A stretch of 14,744 nucleotides of DNA from a virus (IMGVR_UViG_2585427758_000010:1-14744), one strand, 5' to 3'. Positions 4,417-13,642 are shown, counted from the stretch's first letter. The notes: generated from the sequence alone by a model not told the origin. A program made the numbers and translations.

Positions 4417-6681
4417 TTATACGGAAACTGGCACACGAGCAGGCAATGGATAGTGAGCCCAGTTATTAGCATTTAAAGCTCTTACGCCATCAGCATAAAC
4501 TTGTGTGTTTCCATCTAATGATTTTAAAGTTACTACAATAGTTACAGGTAAAGGCTCCATTAAGGCCGGTTCATTCGCTCTCAACGTTGTTTTAGCTTGA
4601 AGAGCCCAGTTACCCGAAGTAATTCCTTTATTAAATGCCTTGCGATGAATTTTTACTGGTGACCACTTTCCACCATGCTCAATTTGAGCTCTCTCATATC
4701 CAGATTGACCGTTTTCTCCTTCCATAGGTACTTTTCCTTTTATAGTATTATTCTCAATTAAGCCAAAACTTAGCTCTACGTTCGCGCGAACATATTCACT
4801 GCCGGCATTAGGGTTCAGTGGTGGTGCATATGCAGCAGTAATTACAATCTCACCTTTAAATTTTCCATTTTGAATAAGTGCCGATGGTATGGGATAGTTT
4901 TCCTTTCTCCACCTCACCCCAGGAACCAAGAATGTTTGGAAAATCAGAGTAAACCTATCATCACTATCATATAAGGTCTCAATAACCTCATTAGGAATTC
5001 CCGCTCCCAAATAGCGTCTTTCACTTGGCGAGTAATCAGGAGAAGATAATTGAGCGGAATGAATTAATAATGCTTTAATCAATGATGGTGAAACATTAAA
5101 GTCTGAATTAGTGGCTATTCTCTGCCATGTATGCGCAGCTAAACTTGCCACAATTGGAGCAGCAAAACTAGTACCAAAATTAGAGCAAAGCCTATTATCT
5201 GGCCCTACGACCTTTAAACTGCTTGCTCCTACATTCCAAGGTCTATGAACCCCACCGCCAGCATGGATTATATCTGGCTTTGGAGTAAATACAGGCCCAG
5301 GGCCACGACGAGTATATGGTGTCGGTGTTCCAATTTCACTTAAAGCATCATTAGCTTCCATATGAGAAACTGAACCAACTGTTAGTGCTCGGACTGACTC
5401 TCCAGGAGAGGAAATTAAATCAGCACCTCCAAGCGGATCAGGATTTGGCCATGTACGTATAGGTTCATCTACATAATTACCTGCAGCAACTACAAACAAA
5501 ATACCAAATTTATCGCTGAGCCGATCTAACTCCATCGCAAAATCACTAAACATCTGCTCATTACATGGTCCGCCTCCCAAAGATAAATTCCAGACTTTTA
5601 TATCTGGTCTTTTATTTACAGCATCTGCTAGCCTCAGAATTAAATCTGATATATAAGATCCATTTTCATCTAAAGCACAAACATCATGGATTTTAGATTT
5701 TGTATCAGGAATCCATGGATGATTGTCATTTAAAAAATGAGCGCCTGATATCAATGAAGACACCATAGTCCCATGTTCATAACTCGTATCAGGAGGAATT
5801 ACGTATGTTTCCCTACTCACTACCCAAGGAGTAATTGTTGCCGCGATGGGGCTTACCCCAGTGTCAAATACAGCAACAATGGGTAATTCTTCTGATGGTA
5901 CGGGAAAGCTATTTGTTTCAATGCCAACAGAATCACTTACACTAACCGGGAATGCTGAATATTTTGGTTCTGGAATTAACGTTCTTATACCCGGGTAATC
6001 AATGAGAATGTCTAATATATATCTATCATTTGGGGATAAATCCATTATCCTTAATAAGGGAAGACCACATTTTGGTCTAATCTCATCATATTTAACTCCG
6101 TGTTGTTCTAATATAGAAATAACGTTTTCATAGTTGTTGTAAGTTGCATCTTCACCTGTGTACTCAAATAGTCGTACAAGGATGTTTGATGATTCAAACA
6201 AACCATCAGTGCCTCCTGGAACCTTCCTATTCTCATCCCAAGGTTCAATGCGCTCAATCGCGCTTAGGTTAGCCAAAATCGCTTTAATATTCCGATGTAA
6301 AATGACTGACTCTAATACGTCAAAACAGCCGGCATGAGCAGCAACCAACATTTCATCTATTTTGGCATGACCGGCATTTTGCAATCCAGCCTCTTGAGCA
6401 ATTTTGTTCGGCCTATGCGTTTTGGCTATTCCCTGGTCTCTTAATTTGAAAACCAAAGTACCCAAGCTTCCAGGGTACTCTGAAAGTTTGGATTCTAAAT
6501 AATGTTTACTGGTTGTTAAATTTCTTACTAGCCCTTGTCTATATTCGGCTGTTACATCAACCAATACCTTTGCCCCACCGCCAGCGTTTACTATTGCACC
6601 CAAGTCACTACTGGAAAAAGGGATTCTTAACATTGGGTTTGTAACTTTTGCGTTACTAAACTGTGTACCCCTTCTGCTCAT
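4417..6681 (-). CDS. Subtilisin-like serine protease (peptidase S8 family), IetS-like
   Basis: 754-aa ORF with the S8 catalytic motifs in canonical order: Asp in VAVFDTGV, His in HGTMVSSLISG, oxyanion Asn in VVAAGNY, Ser in GTSFAAP. About 270 aa precede and about 200 aa follow the catalytic domain. AGGAG lies 3 nt before the ATG. The 5' end overlaps the upstream ATPase gene by 26 bp. Confidence 0.9.
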   Translation of the reverse strand: MSRRGTQFSNAKVTNPMLRIPFSSSDLGAIVNAGGGAKVLVDVTAEYRQGLVRNLTTSKHYLESKLSEYPGSLGTLVFKLRDQGIAKTHRPNKIAQEAGLQNAGHAKIDEMLVAAHAGCFDVLESVILHRNIKAILANLSAIERIEPWDENRKVPGGTDGLFESSNILVRLFEYTGEDATYNNYENVISILEQHGVKYDEIRPKCGLPLLRIMDLSPNDRYILDILIDYPGIRTLIPEPKYSAFPVSVSDSVGIETNSFPVPSEELPIVAVFDTGVSPIAATITPWVVSRETYVIPPDTSYEHGTMVSSLISGAHFLNDNHPWIPDTKSKIHDVCALDENGSYISDLILRLADAVNKRPDIKVWNLSLGGGPCNEQMFSDFAMELDRLSDKFGILFVVAAGNYVDEPIRTWPNPDPLGGADLISSPGESVRALTVGSVSHMEANDALSEIGTPTPYTRRGPGPVFTPKPDIIHAGGGVHRPWNVGASSLKVVGPDNRLCSNFGTSFAAPIVASLAAHTWQRIATNSDFNVSPSLIKALLIHSAQLSSPDYSPSERRYLGAGIPNEVIETLYDSDDRFTLIFQTFLVPGVRWRKENYPIPSALIQNGKFKGEIVITAAYAPPLNPNAGSEYVRANVELSFGLIENNTIKGKVPMEGENGQSGYERAQIEHGGKWSPVKIHRKAFNKGITSGNWALQAKTTLRANEPALMEPLPVTIVVTLKSLDGNTQVYADGVRALNANNWAHYPLPARVPVSV

Positions 6682-7810
6682 ATGCTCCTGACTCCTTCAG
6701 AATGTTTGAAATTACTCTTGATGTAAGTTTGTACAAATTAGCAAGAACTCTGATAGAAAATAATTTTTTATCTTTAGAACGTAACCAACGAATTTCATCT
6801 TCGTAAGTGCTTAAATTTACACCTTCCATAAGCGATTGCGCAAGATACAAACGCCTATACAATTTATGGTGATTTATCACACTTGCACCTTCAATAACTG
6901 CATCCCTACGTGCATCCAAGCTCACCTGTTCAATTATTGCTCCGGATAATCCCTCCGATTTTCTTGATAAATCACTTAAATCTAGATCGCTACATATCAT
7001 ATTCTTTAAACGATTTTTCCAAATTAACTCTCTCTGATGTATGTCAGGCAGAGGCATTGGAATTCTGAAGCTAAATCGCCTCCAGATTGCAGGATCCAGA
7101 AGTTGCTCATGGTTAGTTGAGGCAATAATTACCGTATCCTCTGATGCCGCATCCATATTCTGCAATAGTGAAATGACAACTCGCTGAAGCTCACCTATAT
7201 CTCTCTCATTACCTCTTGCTCCAGCTAAAGCATCAAATTCGTCTAAAAAAAGCACTGATGGCCTCTGCATTACATAATCGAAAACCTGTCTAAGATTTTT
7301 GCTGGTTTGTCCCAATAAACTACTAATCAAAGTATCGCAACGCACTGTAAGAAGTGGAAAATCTAAGCGGGTAGCGATGTACTTAGATAACATAGTCTTA
7401 CCTGTTCCTGGCTTTCCATACACGAGCATACGACTCGGCAATGCTGCATCAGCTTTAACAAACTCATCATAACGTTGAACATTAGTGATAAACTCTTCAA
7501 CACGGGTACTGATTGCTGCAGGCAGAAAAATCTCTGAACTGTCTAATTTAGGATAACTGACATCAACAGTGTTGAGTCGACTATCAATATCTACCGGTAA
7601 TGAGCCCAGAGATATCCCACCTCCAGCCCTTTGAGCTCCTGCCAACGCCTGGGGAGCTCTAAGCAACCTTTCTCTTATCATTCTGGCTTGCTTGACCTCC
7701 CCTTTTTGTTCGAGCTTATCTGCCAGCAACCCAGCATAATTACTAGCCATCGAAGCATTTGCCTTTGTTGCACCTTCAATGATTTTTAACACTTCTGATA
7801 AATAATCCAT
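6656..7810 (-). CDS. AAA+ ATPase, IetA-like
   Basis: 384-aa ORF. Walker A GKPGTGKT, Walker B VLFLDEFD, sensor-1 and arginine-finger region ...IIASTNHEQLLDPAIWRRF, so classic-clade AAA with an N-terminal domain of about 125 aa. GGGAG RBS 6 nt before the ATG. AT-rich codon usage, unlike the flanking phage genes. Confidence 0.9.
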   Translation of the reverse strand: MDYLSEVLKIIEGATKANASMASNYAGLLADKLEQKGEVKQARMIRERLLRAPQALAGAQRAGGGISLGSLPVDIDSRLNTVDVSYPKLDSSEIFLPAAISTRVEEFITNVQRYDEFVKADAALPSRMLVYGKPGTGKTMLSKYIATRLDFPLLTVRCDTLISSLLGQTSKNLRQVFDYVMQRPSVLFLDEFDALAGARGNERDIGELQRVVISLLQNMDAASEDTVIIASTNHEQLLDPAIWRRFSFRIPMPLPDIHQRELIWKNRLKNMICSDLDLSDLSRKSEGLSGAIIEQVSLDARRDAVIEGASVINHHKLYRRLYLAQSLMEGVNLSTYEDEIRWLRSKDKKLFSIRVLANLYKLTSRVISNILKESGAYEQKGYTV

Positions 7811-10972: not shown

Positions 10973-11398
10973 TTAGTGCATCACCACAGCATTCCCTGCC
11001 GGGCCGCCGCGATTCATCTGGTCATACAAAACAACCGCTGACGCAACAAAATCATCGACATCCTTCACCAGCCGATCCCTCCGTTCGACGATCTCACGGT
11101 AATATTCAGAACTGTGGCTGCGCATACGGGCCACCAGCAAAGGCGGCATCGCCTTTTCGATCGCCGGTAACAGAGCCTGCATTTTTTCAACAGCATCAGG
11201 GGTGTCTTTATCCAGCCAACGGAAAATTTTCTGGGTATTACGGGCCAGGGCTTCCGGATGGCTGTCGTCATACAGTTCCGGGAACGTCATTCCCAGCTCG
11301 AAATACGCTTTGGTAATTTTCGCAGCCGGCACTTTTTCGCCGTCCGGATGCGCCCAGACATTCATCGCCATGCGGATGTGTTCATGCTTGATTTTCAT
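10973..11398 (-). CDS. YdaT-like protein (cII-position gene of Rac-type immunity regions)
   Basis: 141-aa ORF directly downstream of the Cro-like gene, with AGGAG 9 nt before the ATG. N-terminus MKIKHEHI... Assigned by synteny with the Rac racR/ydaS/ydaT arrangement. Confidence 0.7.
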   Translation of the reverse strand: MKIKHEHIRMAMNVWAHPDGEKVPAAKITKAYFELGMTFPELYDDSHPEALARNTQKIFRWLDKDTPDAVEKMQALLPAIEKAMPPLLVARMRSHSSEYYREIVERRDRLVKDVDDFVASAVVLYDQMNRGGPAGNAVVMH

Positions 11399-11663
11399 GA
11401 ATCAAGCTCCTAGAAAGTGGTTGTGTTAACGTTTTGGTATCTTCCAGCTCGGGCCAAATATTCATCCAATCAAAAGGCCTTAGTTGCTGACGTGTAACTT
11501 CACCATTACTGGCTCGCTCAATAAGGACACATAACGATGCCCCTAACACTTGACCTTTACTCAATGCCTTTCTTAGATAACCGATGCTGGTACCACACTC
11601 GCATGCAAACATACGCTGTTCATCTGACGAAAGAGAATTGAGAAATATTCTTAATTCTTCCAT
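11382..11663 (-). CDS. Cro-like HTH protein of the YdaS family, first gene of the PR-like operon
   Basis: 93-aa ORF with a perfect AAGGAG SD 5 nt before the ATG. HTH region ...CGTSIGYLRKALSKGQ... and the motif LIERASNGEVTRQQLRPFDW that I associate with YdaS-type proteins. Divergent from the repressor gene. Confidence 0.8.
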   Translation of the reverse strand: MEELRIFLNSLSSDEQRMFACECGTSIGYLRKALSKGQVLGASLCVLIERASNGEVTRQQLRPFDWMNIWPELEDTKTLTQPLSRSLIHENQA

Positions 11664-11689
11664 AGCTACTCCTTAGTAAACACAGCAAA

Positions 11690-11735
11690 GAATACCCACA
11701 GGTAAACAAAAGTCAATACCCACAGGTTGTTTACC
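11690..11735. promoter_or_regulatory. OR-like operator/promoter region between divergent Cro-like and repressor genes
   Basis: Direct repeat AATACCCACAGGT at 11690-11702 and 11714-11726, each holding the dyad-ended 12-mer TACCCACAGGTA, plus inverted GGTAAACAA / TTGTTTACC. On the minus strand a TTGACT -35 and a TATTCT -10 at 16-nt spacing overlap these repeats. On the plus strand TATTAT lies 6 nt before the repressor ATG with no SD. Confidence 0.5.
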
Positions 11736-11763
11736 TTGCGGTAATCGCATCTATTATTTACCT

Positions 11764-12183
11764 ATGGACAAATATGAATTTAGACGACAGCAACTCATCA
11801 AAATTCGTGATGAGAAATGCGATGGTAAAGCGGTTAACGTGGCCAGAAAGATCGGGCGCGAGCCTTCTTATGTATCAAGAATGTTGTACCCAGAGGGGAA
11901 AAAGGGAAAAAAACGGATCGCTGATGATATGGTGGAGATTATCGAAGAGTCCTTTGGGTTACCCCGGGGATGGATGGATGGTATCGTTTCATCATCAACG
12001 AACACAGCCTCCAGTTATGAAACAAGGGTTCTAACGCCACGACAACGTATTTTTTTAGATCTCTTAGACGAACTGCCAGAAAGTGAAGCGGATAAATTAT
12101 TAAAAACTCTTGAAGAGAAAAAACAGTATTACAATATGATCTACGAAGAAATCCGTAAAAAGAAAGCACAAAACGCATCATAG
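11764..12183 (+). CDS. Prophage repressor, RacR/DicA-like (cI analogue, XRE-type HTH)
   Basis: 139-aa ORF with HTH ...KAVNVARKIGREPSYVSRML... and a C-terminal LDELPESEADKLLKTLEE segment reminiscent of DicA-type repressors. Divergent from the Cro-like gene, and no SD before the ATG. Confidence 0.8.
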   Translation: MDKYEFRRQQLIKIRDEKCDGKAVNVARKIGREPSYVSRMLYPEGKKGKKRIADDMVEIIEESFGLPRGWMDGIVSSSTNTASSYETRVLTPRQRIFLDLLDELPESEADKLLKTLEEKKQYYNMIYEEIRKKKAQNAS

Positions 12184-12225
12184 CTCACCAAACAACTAGT
12201 CACCAGTTAAGACACCGCAAAAATT

Positions 12226-12262
12226 TACCCATGGGTATTTACTTTTTAAATACCTATGGGTA
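12226..12262. promoter_or_regulatory. OL-like operator pair and probable PL-like promoter
   Basis: Perfect palindrome TACCCATGGGTA at 12226-12237 and near-copy TACCTATGGGTA at 12251-12262. Together they form a 35-bp near-perfect inverted repeat ACCCATGGGTATTTA-CTTTT-TAAATACCTATGGGT. Same TACC...GGTA core as the OR repeats. Possible -35 TTTACC and -10 TAAATA at 17-nt spacing. Confidence 0.45.
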
Positions 12263-12448
12263 TCCTTCTTTTCATACCAACCCACCCCGCCCCACAGAAT
12301 GCAGGGCAATACTTCGAGTTACCAGGCAGTGGTCAGGGGTTAAGTAGCCAGCCCGAGGCGTAAGAACATGACGGCAGGGTTCAACTTTAATAACTATGCA
12401 GCAGGTTTTTGTTCCGCTACCCCGGCGTTAAGGGGAAATGAGGTCAAC

Positions 12449-12601
12449 ATGGATATGCTCAATCTTGGCAACAACGAATCTCTGGTATGTGGCGTGTTCC
12501 CCAACCAGGACGGCACGTTTACCGCGATGACGTATACCAGAAGCAAAACGTTTAAAACTGAAGCTGGCGCGCGTCGCTGGTTAACCAGAAACACTGACTG
12601 A
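12449..12601 (+). CDS. Small protein (50 aa), YdfA/YdaF-like by position
   Basis: ATG 12449 preceded by GAGGT at 4-nt spacing. Product MDMLNLGNNESLVCGVFPNQDGTFTAMTYTRSKTFKTEAGARRWLTRNTD. It is the first gene after the repressor, as ydfA is in Qin and ydaF in Rac. The longer track ORF from 12368 has no RBS. Confidence 0.55.
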   Translation: MDMLNLGNNESLVCGVFPNQDGTFTAMTYTRSKTFKTEAGARRWLTRNTD

Positions 12602-13584: not shown

Positions 13585-13642
13585 TTTCTGGTGACGTTTG
13601 GCGGTATCAGTTTTACTCCGTGACTGCTCTGCCGCCCTTTTT
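13585..13642 (+). ncRNA. dicF: DicF small regulatory RNA (Hfq-dependent sRNA of the dicB operon)
   Basis: TTTCTGGTGACGTTTGGCGGTATCAGTTTTACTCCGTGACTGCTCTGCCGCCCTTTTT matches my recollection of the 53-nt DicF RNA and ends in a GC-rich element plus T5. It sits about 170 nt upstream of dicB, the position it has in Qin. Identity is from memory, not a search. Confidence 0.6.

Follow-up and report, generated by a model that had tools for sequence, protein, structure and literature searches.

A probable lambda-type immunity switch with a predicted leaderless repressor mRNA in a lambdoid prophage of Escherichia coli

The stretch of DNA considered here, IMGVR_UViG_2585427758_000010:1-14744 (14,744 nt; the window, to which all coordinates refer), belongs to a lambdoid, Rac/CP-933P-like prophage of Escherichia coli, of which it covers only a part. 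Within it, an intergenic gap of 100 bp (11664-11763) separates a cro-like open reading frame (ORF) on the minus strand from a repressor ORF on the plus strand. It is proposed that this gap, which holds a right operator region (OR) and two back-to-back promoters (PRM, for maintenance of the repressor, and PR, for the cro-like side), forms a lambda-type bistable immunity switch with a leaderless maintenance mRNA, in conjunction with a second operator region (OL) placed on a promoter designated PL. A probability of roughly 0.8 is assigned to this reading. The divergent arrangement had already been recognized in an earlier, sequence-only reading of the window and is borne out: the repressor is of the CI type, and the gene to its left is of the Cro/YdaS type and is followed by the gene for the CII-like protein YdaT. 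The two genes that flank the gap are:

11764-12183, plus strand: repressor gene, 139 aa; helix-turn-helix at the N-terminus and a hairpin of helices at the C-terminus, joined by a disordered linker; lacks an S24 domain
11382-11663, minus strand: cro-like (YdaS-type) gene, 93 aa; matches PHROG 35 at 4.8e-23 and the Cro structures 8c7k and 8co2 of the PDB at 1e-10

The repeat unit of the gap is a 12-bp palindrome, the putative operator frame TACC-N4-GGTA, of which three copies are present. With centers counted from the repressor ATG, they are:

11693-11704: operator O1, TACCCACAGGTA; exact core, center at -65.5; inside the PR spacer, with a 2-bp overlap with the PR -10; position kept in 36 of 43 loci (the set described below)
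11717-11728: operator O2, TACCCACAGGTT; one mismatch, center at -41.5; abuts the PR -35
11732-11743: operator O3, TACCTTGCGGTA; exact core, center at -26.5; over the PRM -35 and spacer

From center to center, O1 and O2 are 24 bp apart and O2 and O3 15 bp, which leaves only 3 bp between the latter two. Exact copies of TACC-N4-GGTA occur four times in the 14.7-kb window against 0.14 expected, a number reached in none of 200 shuffles, and all four fall in the two control regions, OR and OL. In the sequence-only reading, the gap was said to hold two copies of a repeat and an inverted pair. The repeat, AATACCCACAGGT, is indeed found exactly twice (11691-11703 and 11715-11727), and the members of the pair, GGTAAACAA at 11701-11709 and TTGTTTACC at 11727-11735, are also present. 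Nevertheless, the pair is only a part of a 20-nt inverted match with arms at 11690-11709 and 11727-11746; it covers the flank of O1 on the right side and that of O3 on the left. Since these arms are 80% complementary, O3 is taken as a full third operator in the opposite orientation. The repeats stand as putative operators, but the inventory becomes three OR operators rather than two repeats plus an inverted pair, and the OL/PL region had been overlooked.

The operators also differ in their four central bases. These alternate between pyrimidine and purine at O1, O2, and the OL sites (CACA, CATG, and TATG) but not at O3 (TTGC), and the contrast of O1 and O2 with O3 is systematic across 36 loci. 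In the operators of phage 434, the central bases tune affinity although the repressor does not contact them. By analogy, the central four bases could tune affinity here as well. A fourth operator had been considered over the start codon (11759-11770, TACCTATGGACA) and was discarded, as the 6-7 nt before the ATG are unconserved in relatives and its right half is constrained by coding.

The promoters are positioned over these repeats as follows:

11711-11716, minus strand: PR -35, TTGACT (promoter scan)
11689-11694, minus strand: PR -10, TATTCT (promoter scan); predicted +1 near 11682
11730-11735, plus strand: PRM-like -35, TTTACC (promoter scan); 'attTACC' is kept across loci
11752-11757, plus strand: PRM-like -10, TATTAT (promoter scan)
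11764, plus strand: predicted transcription start of the repressor, at the A of the ATG, 7 nt past the last base of the -10

Within 11300-12500, the scan returned just two sites, TTGACT-16-TATTCT (minus strand, 11716 to 11689) and TTTACC-16-TATTAT (plus strand, 11730-11757), and both face outward from the gap. The first is the Cro-side promoter that the repeats had been said to overlap, and this overlap is confirmed, with O1 in the spacer and O2 at the -35. A count of two is not above chance (2.7 are expected from shuffled sequence), so PR and PRM rest on their position over the repeats and on conservation and not on the scan itself.

The message of the repressor very probably starts at its own start codon, as judged from the sequence and from the precedents discussed below. 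The ATG at 11764 is preceded by the TATTAT hexamer and then by 6 nt, ttacct, and none of GGAG, GAGG, AGGA, or AAGG occurs in the 20 nt upstream, so that, as had been claimed, a Shine-Dalgarno (SD) sequence is missing. There is also no in-frame ATG, GTG, or TTG between the upstream stop codon (11677-11679) and 11764. The suggestion of a leaderless repressor mRNA now gains support from comparison, namely a conserved geometry of the -10 and the ATG, the missing SD, and the precedents of lambda and CP-933P.

For this comparison, one genome per species was scanned for the same DNA-binding domain, which yielded 42 loci of about 5 kb each, or 43 with the window. They span Enterobacterales, Aeromonas, Neisseria, Burkholderiales, Nitrosomonadales, and Xanthomonadales. 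The repressor start codon is ATG in all 43, and the homologues all begin with MDKYE or variants of the form M(D/E/N)(K/R)YE. An SD-like tetramer is absent from the 20 nt upstream in 31 of the 43 loci, the window included; in the remaining ones, its place is either before the -10 or immediately next to the ATG. When the loci are aligned on O3, a hexamer of the TAnnnT type (TATTAT, TAGAAT, TAAAAT, TATGAT, TAGACT, etc.) is found 8 nt after O3 in every enterobacterial locus, with unconserved bases on both sides. The distance in this fixed register from the end of the hexamer to the ATG is 6 nt in 10 loci and 7 nt in 22 (32 of 37), and the other five have a better hexamer 1-2 nt further on, which ends 5-7 nt before the ATG.

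The cro-like genes of the same loci serve as a control. In 22 of them, the ATG follows the PR -10 at a distance of 24-34 nt; GGAG, GAGG, AGGA, or AAGG is present in 21 of these 22. The cro-like gene of the window belongs to this leadered class, with 25 nt between the PR -10 and its ATG, AAGG included. Its SD can be read directly from the sequence:

11669-11674, minus strand: SD of the cro-like gene, AAGGAG, 5 nt before the ATG

A different arrangement was observed in a group of beta-proteobacterial and Xanthomonadales loci (L022, L026, L029, L030, L035, L038, and L040-L042), where the cro-like ATG, on the minus strand about 70-90 nt upstream of the repressor ATG, follows the PR -10 by only 6-8 nt and lacks an SD. 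Consequently, both genes of the switch appear to be leaderless in these relatives.

The operators show a similar constancy. In the 42 loci, exact sites are found almost only at -71 to -75 (-85 in one locus) and at -32 to -35 from the repressor ATG, or in the region downstream of the repressor operon, where they are usually paired, 25-26 bp apart. Three sites stray from this rule: L034 has them at -448 and -49, and L033 has a single one without a partner at +2870, 25 nt before the sequence of that locus ends. The O1/O2/O3 architecture is kept in 36 of the 43 loci, with O1 and O2 spaced at 25 bp in 31 loci and at 24 bp in 5, and O2 and O3 always at 15 bp. In these 36 loci, from E. coli to Neisseria and Xanthomonas, O3 starts 32-35 nt before the repressor ATG. 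The right half of O2 is imperfect in most loci, and this imperfection is itself conserved. The promoter elements are kept too: TCAA before O2 on the plus strand, which is the TTGA of the PR -35, is conserved in 26-32 of the 36 loci, and a TAnnnT whose initial TA is the last TA of O1 is conserved as the PR -10. The downstream pair of the relatives copies this design, in the order OL2, TTGACn, OL1, and a -10 starting from the last TA. Cro-like proteins are homologous across most loci (MEELRIYLNSLS..CGTSIGYLRKA) and are usually encoded divergently to the repressor. The repeats thus travel with the repressor/cro family across some 40 loci, and no TACC-N4-GGTA site was found in eight loci where an identical YdaT is associated with other immunity modules (PaaR2 plus YdaS, or an S24-type CI plus a P22-type Cro).

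Some Klebsiella loci depart from this pattern. In L005, L007, and L009-L011, O1, O3, and the geometry of the -10 and the ATG are kept, O2 is degenerate, and no homologue of the divergent cro-like gene turned up in an ORF scan. These loci may hold a switch reduced to an autoregulated repressor.

The second control region follows the repressor gene directly, together with a DUF1391 gene:

12226-12237: operator OL2, TACCCATGGGTA; exact core, just upstream of the PL -35 and 43 bp past the repressor stop codon
12238-12243, plus strand: PL-like -35, TTTACT; assigned by visual inspection and by aligning the region with the PR module; TTGACn in relatives
12251-12262: operator OL1, TACCTATGGGTA; exact core; inside the PL spacer and sharing bases with the PL -10
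12261-12266, plus strand: PL-like -10, TATCCT; 17-nt spacer, predicted +1 near 12273; below the scan threshold (8/12), hence a candidate
12226-12273, plus strand: RNA hairpin of OL2 with OL1, followed by a U-rich tail; probably terminates the repressor transcript

OL1 and OL2 are thus placed on PL as O1 and O2 are on PR. The hairpin has 16 bp and a predicted stability of -23.4 kcal/mol (z -5.4; none of 200 shuffles was as stable), is followed by UCCUUCUUUU, and matches a terminator-like pattern in a scan. It probably ends the PRM transcript directly before the start of PL, and the OL pair is therefore a possible dual element, operator and terminator. The operon of the PL-like promoter holds the DUF1391 gene and also the small RNA DicF (13586-13637, plus strand; Rfam RF00039, 76.7 bits), which was the sole match of an Rfam scan of the window, with nothing found within 11300-12500. 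Because of this position, DicF is presumably kept silent by the repressor. The dicBF operon of the Qin prophage is kept silent by a prophage repressor, through DicA/DicC. The likeness consists of a dicF-containing operon under a prophage repressor; in other strains, the operon also holds dicB.

The design is that of lambda in most respects. As in lambda, a divergent repressor and cro are separated by three OR operators over back-to-back promoters, and a second set of operators lies on PL, a promoter placed after the repressor gene and pointing in the same direction. The centers of OR1, OR2, and OR3 in lambda are at -66, -42, and -19, against -65.5, -41.5, and -26.5 for O1, O2, and O3, so that the spacing of the first two is like the 24 bp observed here. 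The PRM of lambda, TAGATT-taacgt-ATG, from which the mRNA is leaderless, has the same geometry, with 6 nt before the ATG. By contrast, lambda has 17-bp operators instead of 12-bp cores, 23 bp instead of 15 bp between the second and third sites, and three OL sites instead of two clear ones; the repressor of the window has an unrelated DNA-binding domain sequence, and YdaT takes the role of CII. The repressor also lacks the S24 domain and so does not qualify as a canonical CI of the lambda type.

Another close parallel is CP-933P of E. coli O157:H7. Its gene order is the same, its YdaT is 100% identical, the YdaT operator OM is identical, the intergenic region is of about 100 bp, a PL with OL sites is present, and the repressor, PaaR2, is a short CI-like protein without S24 that is distantly homologous to that of the window. 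The -10 of its PRM is likewise 6 nt before the ATG (GATAAT-taccac-ATG). For paaR2, the +1 was mapped to the start codon by rapid amplification of 5′ cDNA ends, and leaderless translation was confirmed through the N-terminus, MQKKE, with the help of N-terminal sequencing and mass spectrometry (PMC8630535). Nevertheless, the window does not belong to the CP-933P immunity type, as the operators there are GTTTAGTAA-type repeats instead of TACC-N4-GGTA, the Cro-like proteins are only distantly similar (E ~1e-10), and no ParE or PaaA2 was found in the window, whereas paaA2-parE2 follows the repressor in CP-933P.

With the lambdoid phage mEp043 (JQ182734), a viable phage, and with the loci of many S24-type CI repressors from Enterobacterales, Burkholderiales, Neisseria, and Xanthomonadales, the window shares the DNA-binding domain, the Cro family, the O1/O2/O3 and OL/PL architecture, and the geometry of the -10 and the ATG. 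The OR of mEp043 ends in TAGAAT-taaatc-ATG, and the putative PL annotated by its depositors falls exactly on the OL pair. The repressor of the window and the cI of mEp043 are of a common class of operator and DNA-binding specificity. In contrast to the window repressor, the CI proteins of this whole group end in a cleavage domain of the S24 (LexA) type. No paper was found in the literature on operators of the TACC-N4-GGTA class or on the immunity region of mEp043.

The repressor itself, WP_000362153.1, is named "hypothetical protein" in RefSeq, and a literature search for WP_000362153 found no papers. Over roughly the first 73 residues (MDKYE...LPRGWMDG), it shares 65-82% identity with the N-terminal domain of numerous S24-type CI repressors of 221-242 aa from Salmonella, Edwardsiella, Klebsiella, Pantoea, and others, the cI of mEp043 among them. 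While these longer homologues carry PF00717, the repressor has a helical tail of about 50 aa in place of the S24 domain, an arrangement also seen in short homologues from Salmonella, Serratia, Yersinia, and Arsenophonus. Searched against Pfam and against the sequences of the PDB, the repressor gave no significant match, and no S24 domain was found. In an AlphaFold2 monomer model (predicted local distance difference test score 81), the DNA-binding part has helices at 3-18, 23-30, 34-41, and 54-63, followed by a disordered linker (76-87) and the hairpin (92-138). The best fold match found in the PDB with Foldseek is weak (5d50; E 7e-4, template modelling score 0.47, 16% identity); it is Rep of Salmonella phage SPC32H in the Rep-Ant complex, which is also a short helix-turn-helix repressor without a cleavage domain. 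Homology to PaaR2 is distant (BLASTP, 23% identity over 90 aa, E 8e-9) and spans the end of the helix-turn-helix, the linker, and a C-terminal motif, LT..Q..LL..F..PE.E.

To the left of the cro-like gene, the following features complete the module:

10973-11398, minus strand: ydaT, encoding the CII-like protein; Pfam YdaT_toxin at 2.8e-10; 100% identical to PDB 8bt1, the YdaT of CP-933P
11388-11405: YdaT operator OM, TTGATTTTCATGAATCAA; at the cro/ydaT junction, an exact TTGATT-N6-AATCAA; by analogy, the site of a promoter like that for repressor establishment (PRE)

In CP-933P, YdaT activates PRE933P, and its footprint lies at OM, at the end of ydaS and at the start of PRE933P (PMC9986795). 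The homology of the window DNA to two other immunity types starts 1 nt inside OM, so the module made up of cI, OR, and cro is a cassette that has been swapped on a shared backbone of ydaT and replication genes. The same point, 1 nt inside OM, is the recombination breakpoint among three immunity modules with an identical YdaT (L044 and L046, at ~2490-2510).

If these elements work as in lambda and CP-933P, the switch would operate in the following manner. In the lysogen, the 139-aa repressor would occupy O1 and O2, and OL1 and OL2, and thereby shut PR and PL; this would silence the cro-like gene, ydaT, the replication genes, and Q on one side, and the genes from DUF1391 through dicF on the other. 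Repressor bound at O2 (-41.5) may stimulate PRM, as CI of lambda does from OR2 (-42), while O3 would provide negative autoregulation and would likely be the first target of the Cro-like protein. Transcription from PRM would start at the A of the ATG, and the resulting leaderless maintenance mRNA would be translated from its 5′-terminal AUG until the hairpin of OL1 and OL2, with its U-tract, terminates the transcript just before the PL start. During establishment, by contrast, YdaT at OM would activate the PRE-like promoter and give rise to a leadered repressor mRNA. Induction could not proceed by RecA-stimulated self-cleavage, given that the repressor lacks an S24 domain. A search of the window for the LexA box CTGT-N8-ACAG, aimed at an SOS-controlled antirepressor of the kind associated with SPC32H Rep and Gifsy-type repressors, found none, and no antirepressor gene was found in the window, which covers only part of the prophage.

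Several observations weigh against the reading of a lambda-type switch. Its functional steps are drawn from analogy with lambda and CP-933P, and the related loci are not independent samples. The promoters match the consensus only moderately (PRM 9/12, PL 8/12), and the U-tract after the OL hairpin is conserved only in E. coli and Klebsiella. The core of O3 is perfect and that of O2 imperfect, which is the reverse of the naive expectation that the site of autorepression is the weakest and makes the order in which the operators fill uncertain. O2 and O3, 15 bp apart from center to center (3 bp between them) against 23 bp in lambda, are so close that they may not be occupied together, nor show pairwise cooperativity in the manner of lambda. 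Furthermore, frameshifted copies of the repressor exist in some E. coli (proteins P0010 and P0019), which start with MNLDDS in the frame of an ATG at 11774. These rejoin the normal frame later and are probably decaying copies or sequencing errors; accordingly, some copies of the prophage may be decaying.

It is unlikely, but conceivable, that the switch is real and the repressor mRNA leadered. In that case, TATTAT would have no role as a -10, maintenance transcription would begin at a more distant upstream point or depend solely on the PRE-like promoter activated by YdaT, and the A/U-rich stretch before the ATG, tctattatttacct, would act as an SD-independent translation enhancer of the S1 type. 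The -35 of PRM, TTTACC, is indeed weak, and a PRE-like route that gives a leadered mRNA is almost certain, considering the exact OM, the identical YdaT, and the activation of PRE933P by this protein. However, the -10-like hexamer keeps its register with both O3 and the ATG in very diverged loci where the surrounding bases are free, and the fixed distance of 32-35 nt from O3 to the ATG could not accommodate leaders that differ in length. In CP-933P, moreover, the same geometry goes together with a +1 that maps to the start codon.

Two further explanations touch the switch itself, and both are very improbable. TACC-N4-GGTA might be the operator of the Cro-like protein only, with the 139-aa protein acting at other places or on a different motif. 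The two proteins are not told apart by co-occurrence alone, because the Cro-like family accompanies the motif as consistently as the DNA-binding domain of the repressor does. Nevertheless, in four of the Klebsiella loci (L005 and L009-L011), the ORF scan detected no divergent cro-like gene next to the repressor, and yet the repressor is retained together with the sites and the geometry of the -10 and the ATG; both proteins use the same operators in lambda and CP-933P; and the sites are placed where the repressor must act to silence PR and PL. It would be no less surprising if the region were a decayed remnant in a defective prophage, with sites and promoters that are recognizable and no longer regulate. 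The frameshifted variants P0010 and P0019 would fit with decay, as would the IS66-type element that interrupts the neighboring replication region in E. coli PCN033 (NZ_CP006632), where the switch lies at about 1391103-1391904. Against this, the repressor, cro-like, and ydaT ORFs of the window are intact, all five operators are present, and the 1051-bp region around the switch is found at 99-100% identity, with at least 80% of its length covered, in about 820 complete E. coli genomes. PL also controls dicF (in other strains, dicB as well), whose silencing is needed by the host.

Elsewhere in the window, an ietAS anti-phage defense system of two genes (4417-7810, minus strand) was observed among the early-right genes of the prophage, with replication genes on one side and the DUF968, RusA, and Q genes on the other. 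IetS is a 754-aa subtilase (PADLOC, 3e-300) and IetA a 384-aa AAA ATPase (PADLOC, 9e-143).

As a regulatory design, the lambda-type switch proposed here would be correct but ordinary, since the same design is proven in lambda and CP-933P. The leaderless repressor genes of lambda and of PaaR2 are already known, and conceptually nothing is added beyond these systems. More tentatively, the related loci might be read as a widespread immunity-switch family of Enterobacterales, Aeromonas, Neisseria, Burkholderiales, and Xanthomonadales, with a rigid geometry unlike that of lambda. In such a family, occupancy of O2 and O3 may be mutually exclusive, or the repressor may act as a higher oligomer like PaaR2 rather than as pairwise dimers; sites may be discriminated through their uncontacted central four bases; the OL pair may also serve to terminate repressor transcription; and both switch genes appear leaderless in the beta-proteobacterial and Xanthomonas members. 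This combination, taken as a whole, is regarded as possible rather than likely.

The modest addition lies in a rigid, three-operator, apparently leaderless architecture that is kept across several orders of Proteobacteria. In addition, a protein annotated only as hypothetical, WP_000362153.1, gains a named operator, three promoters, and a regulatory model. As the repressor is proposed to keep the dicF operon and the lytic genes silent, the switch bears on the stability of the prophage and on its toxicity for the host. Finally, the comparative set represents a natural experiment on leaderless translation, in which the repressor gene would always be leaderless and cro would be, depending on the lineage, either leadered with an SD or leaderless.

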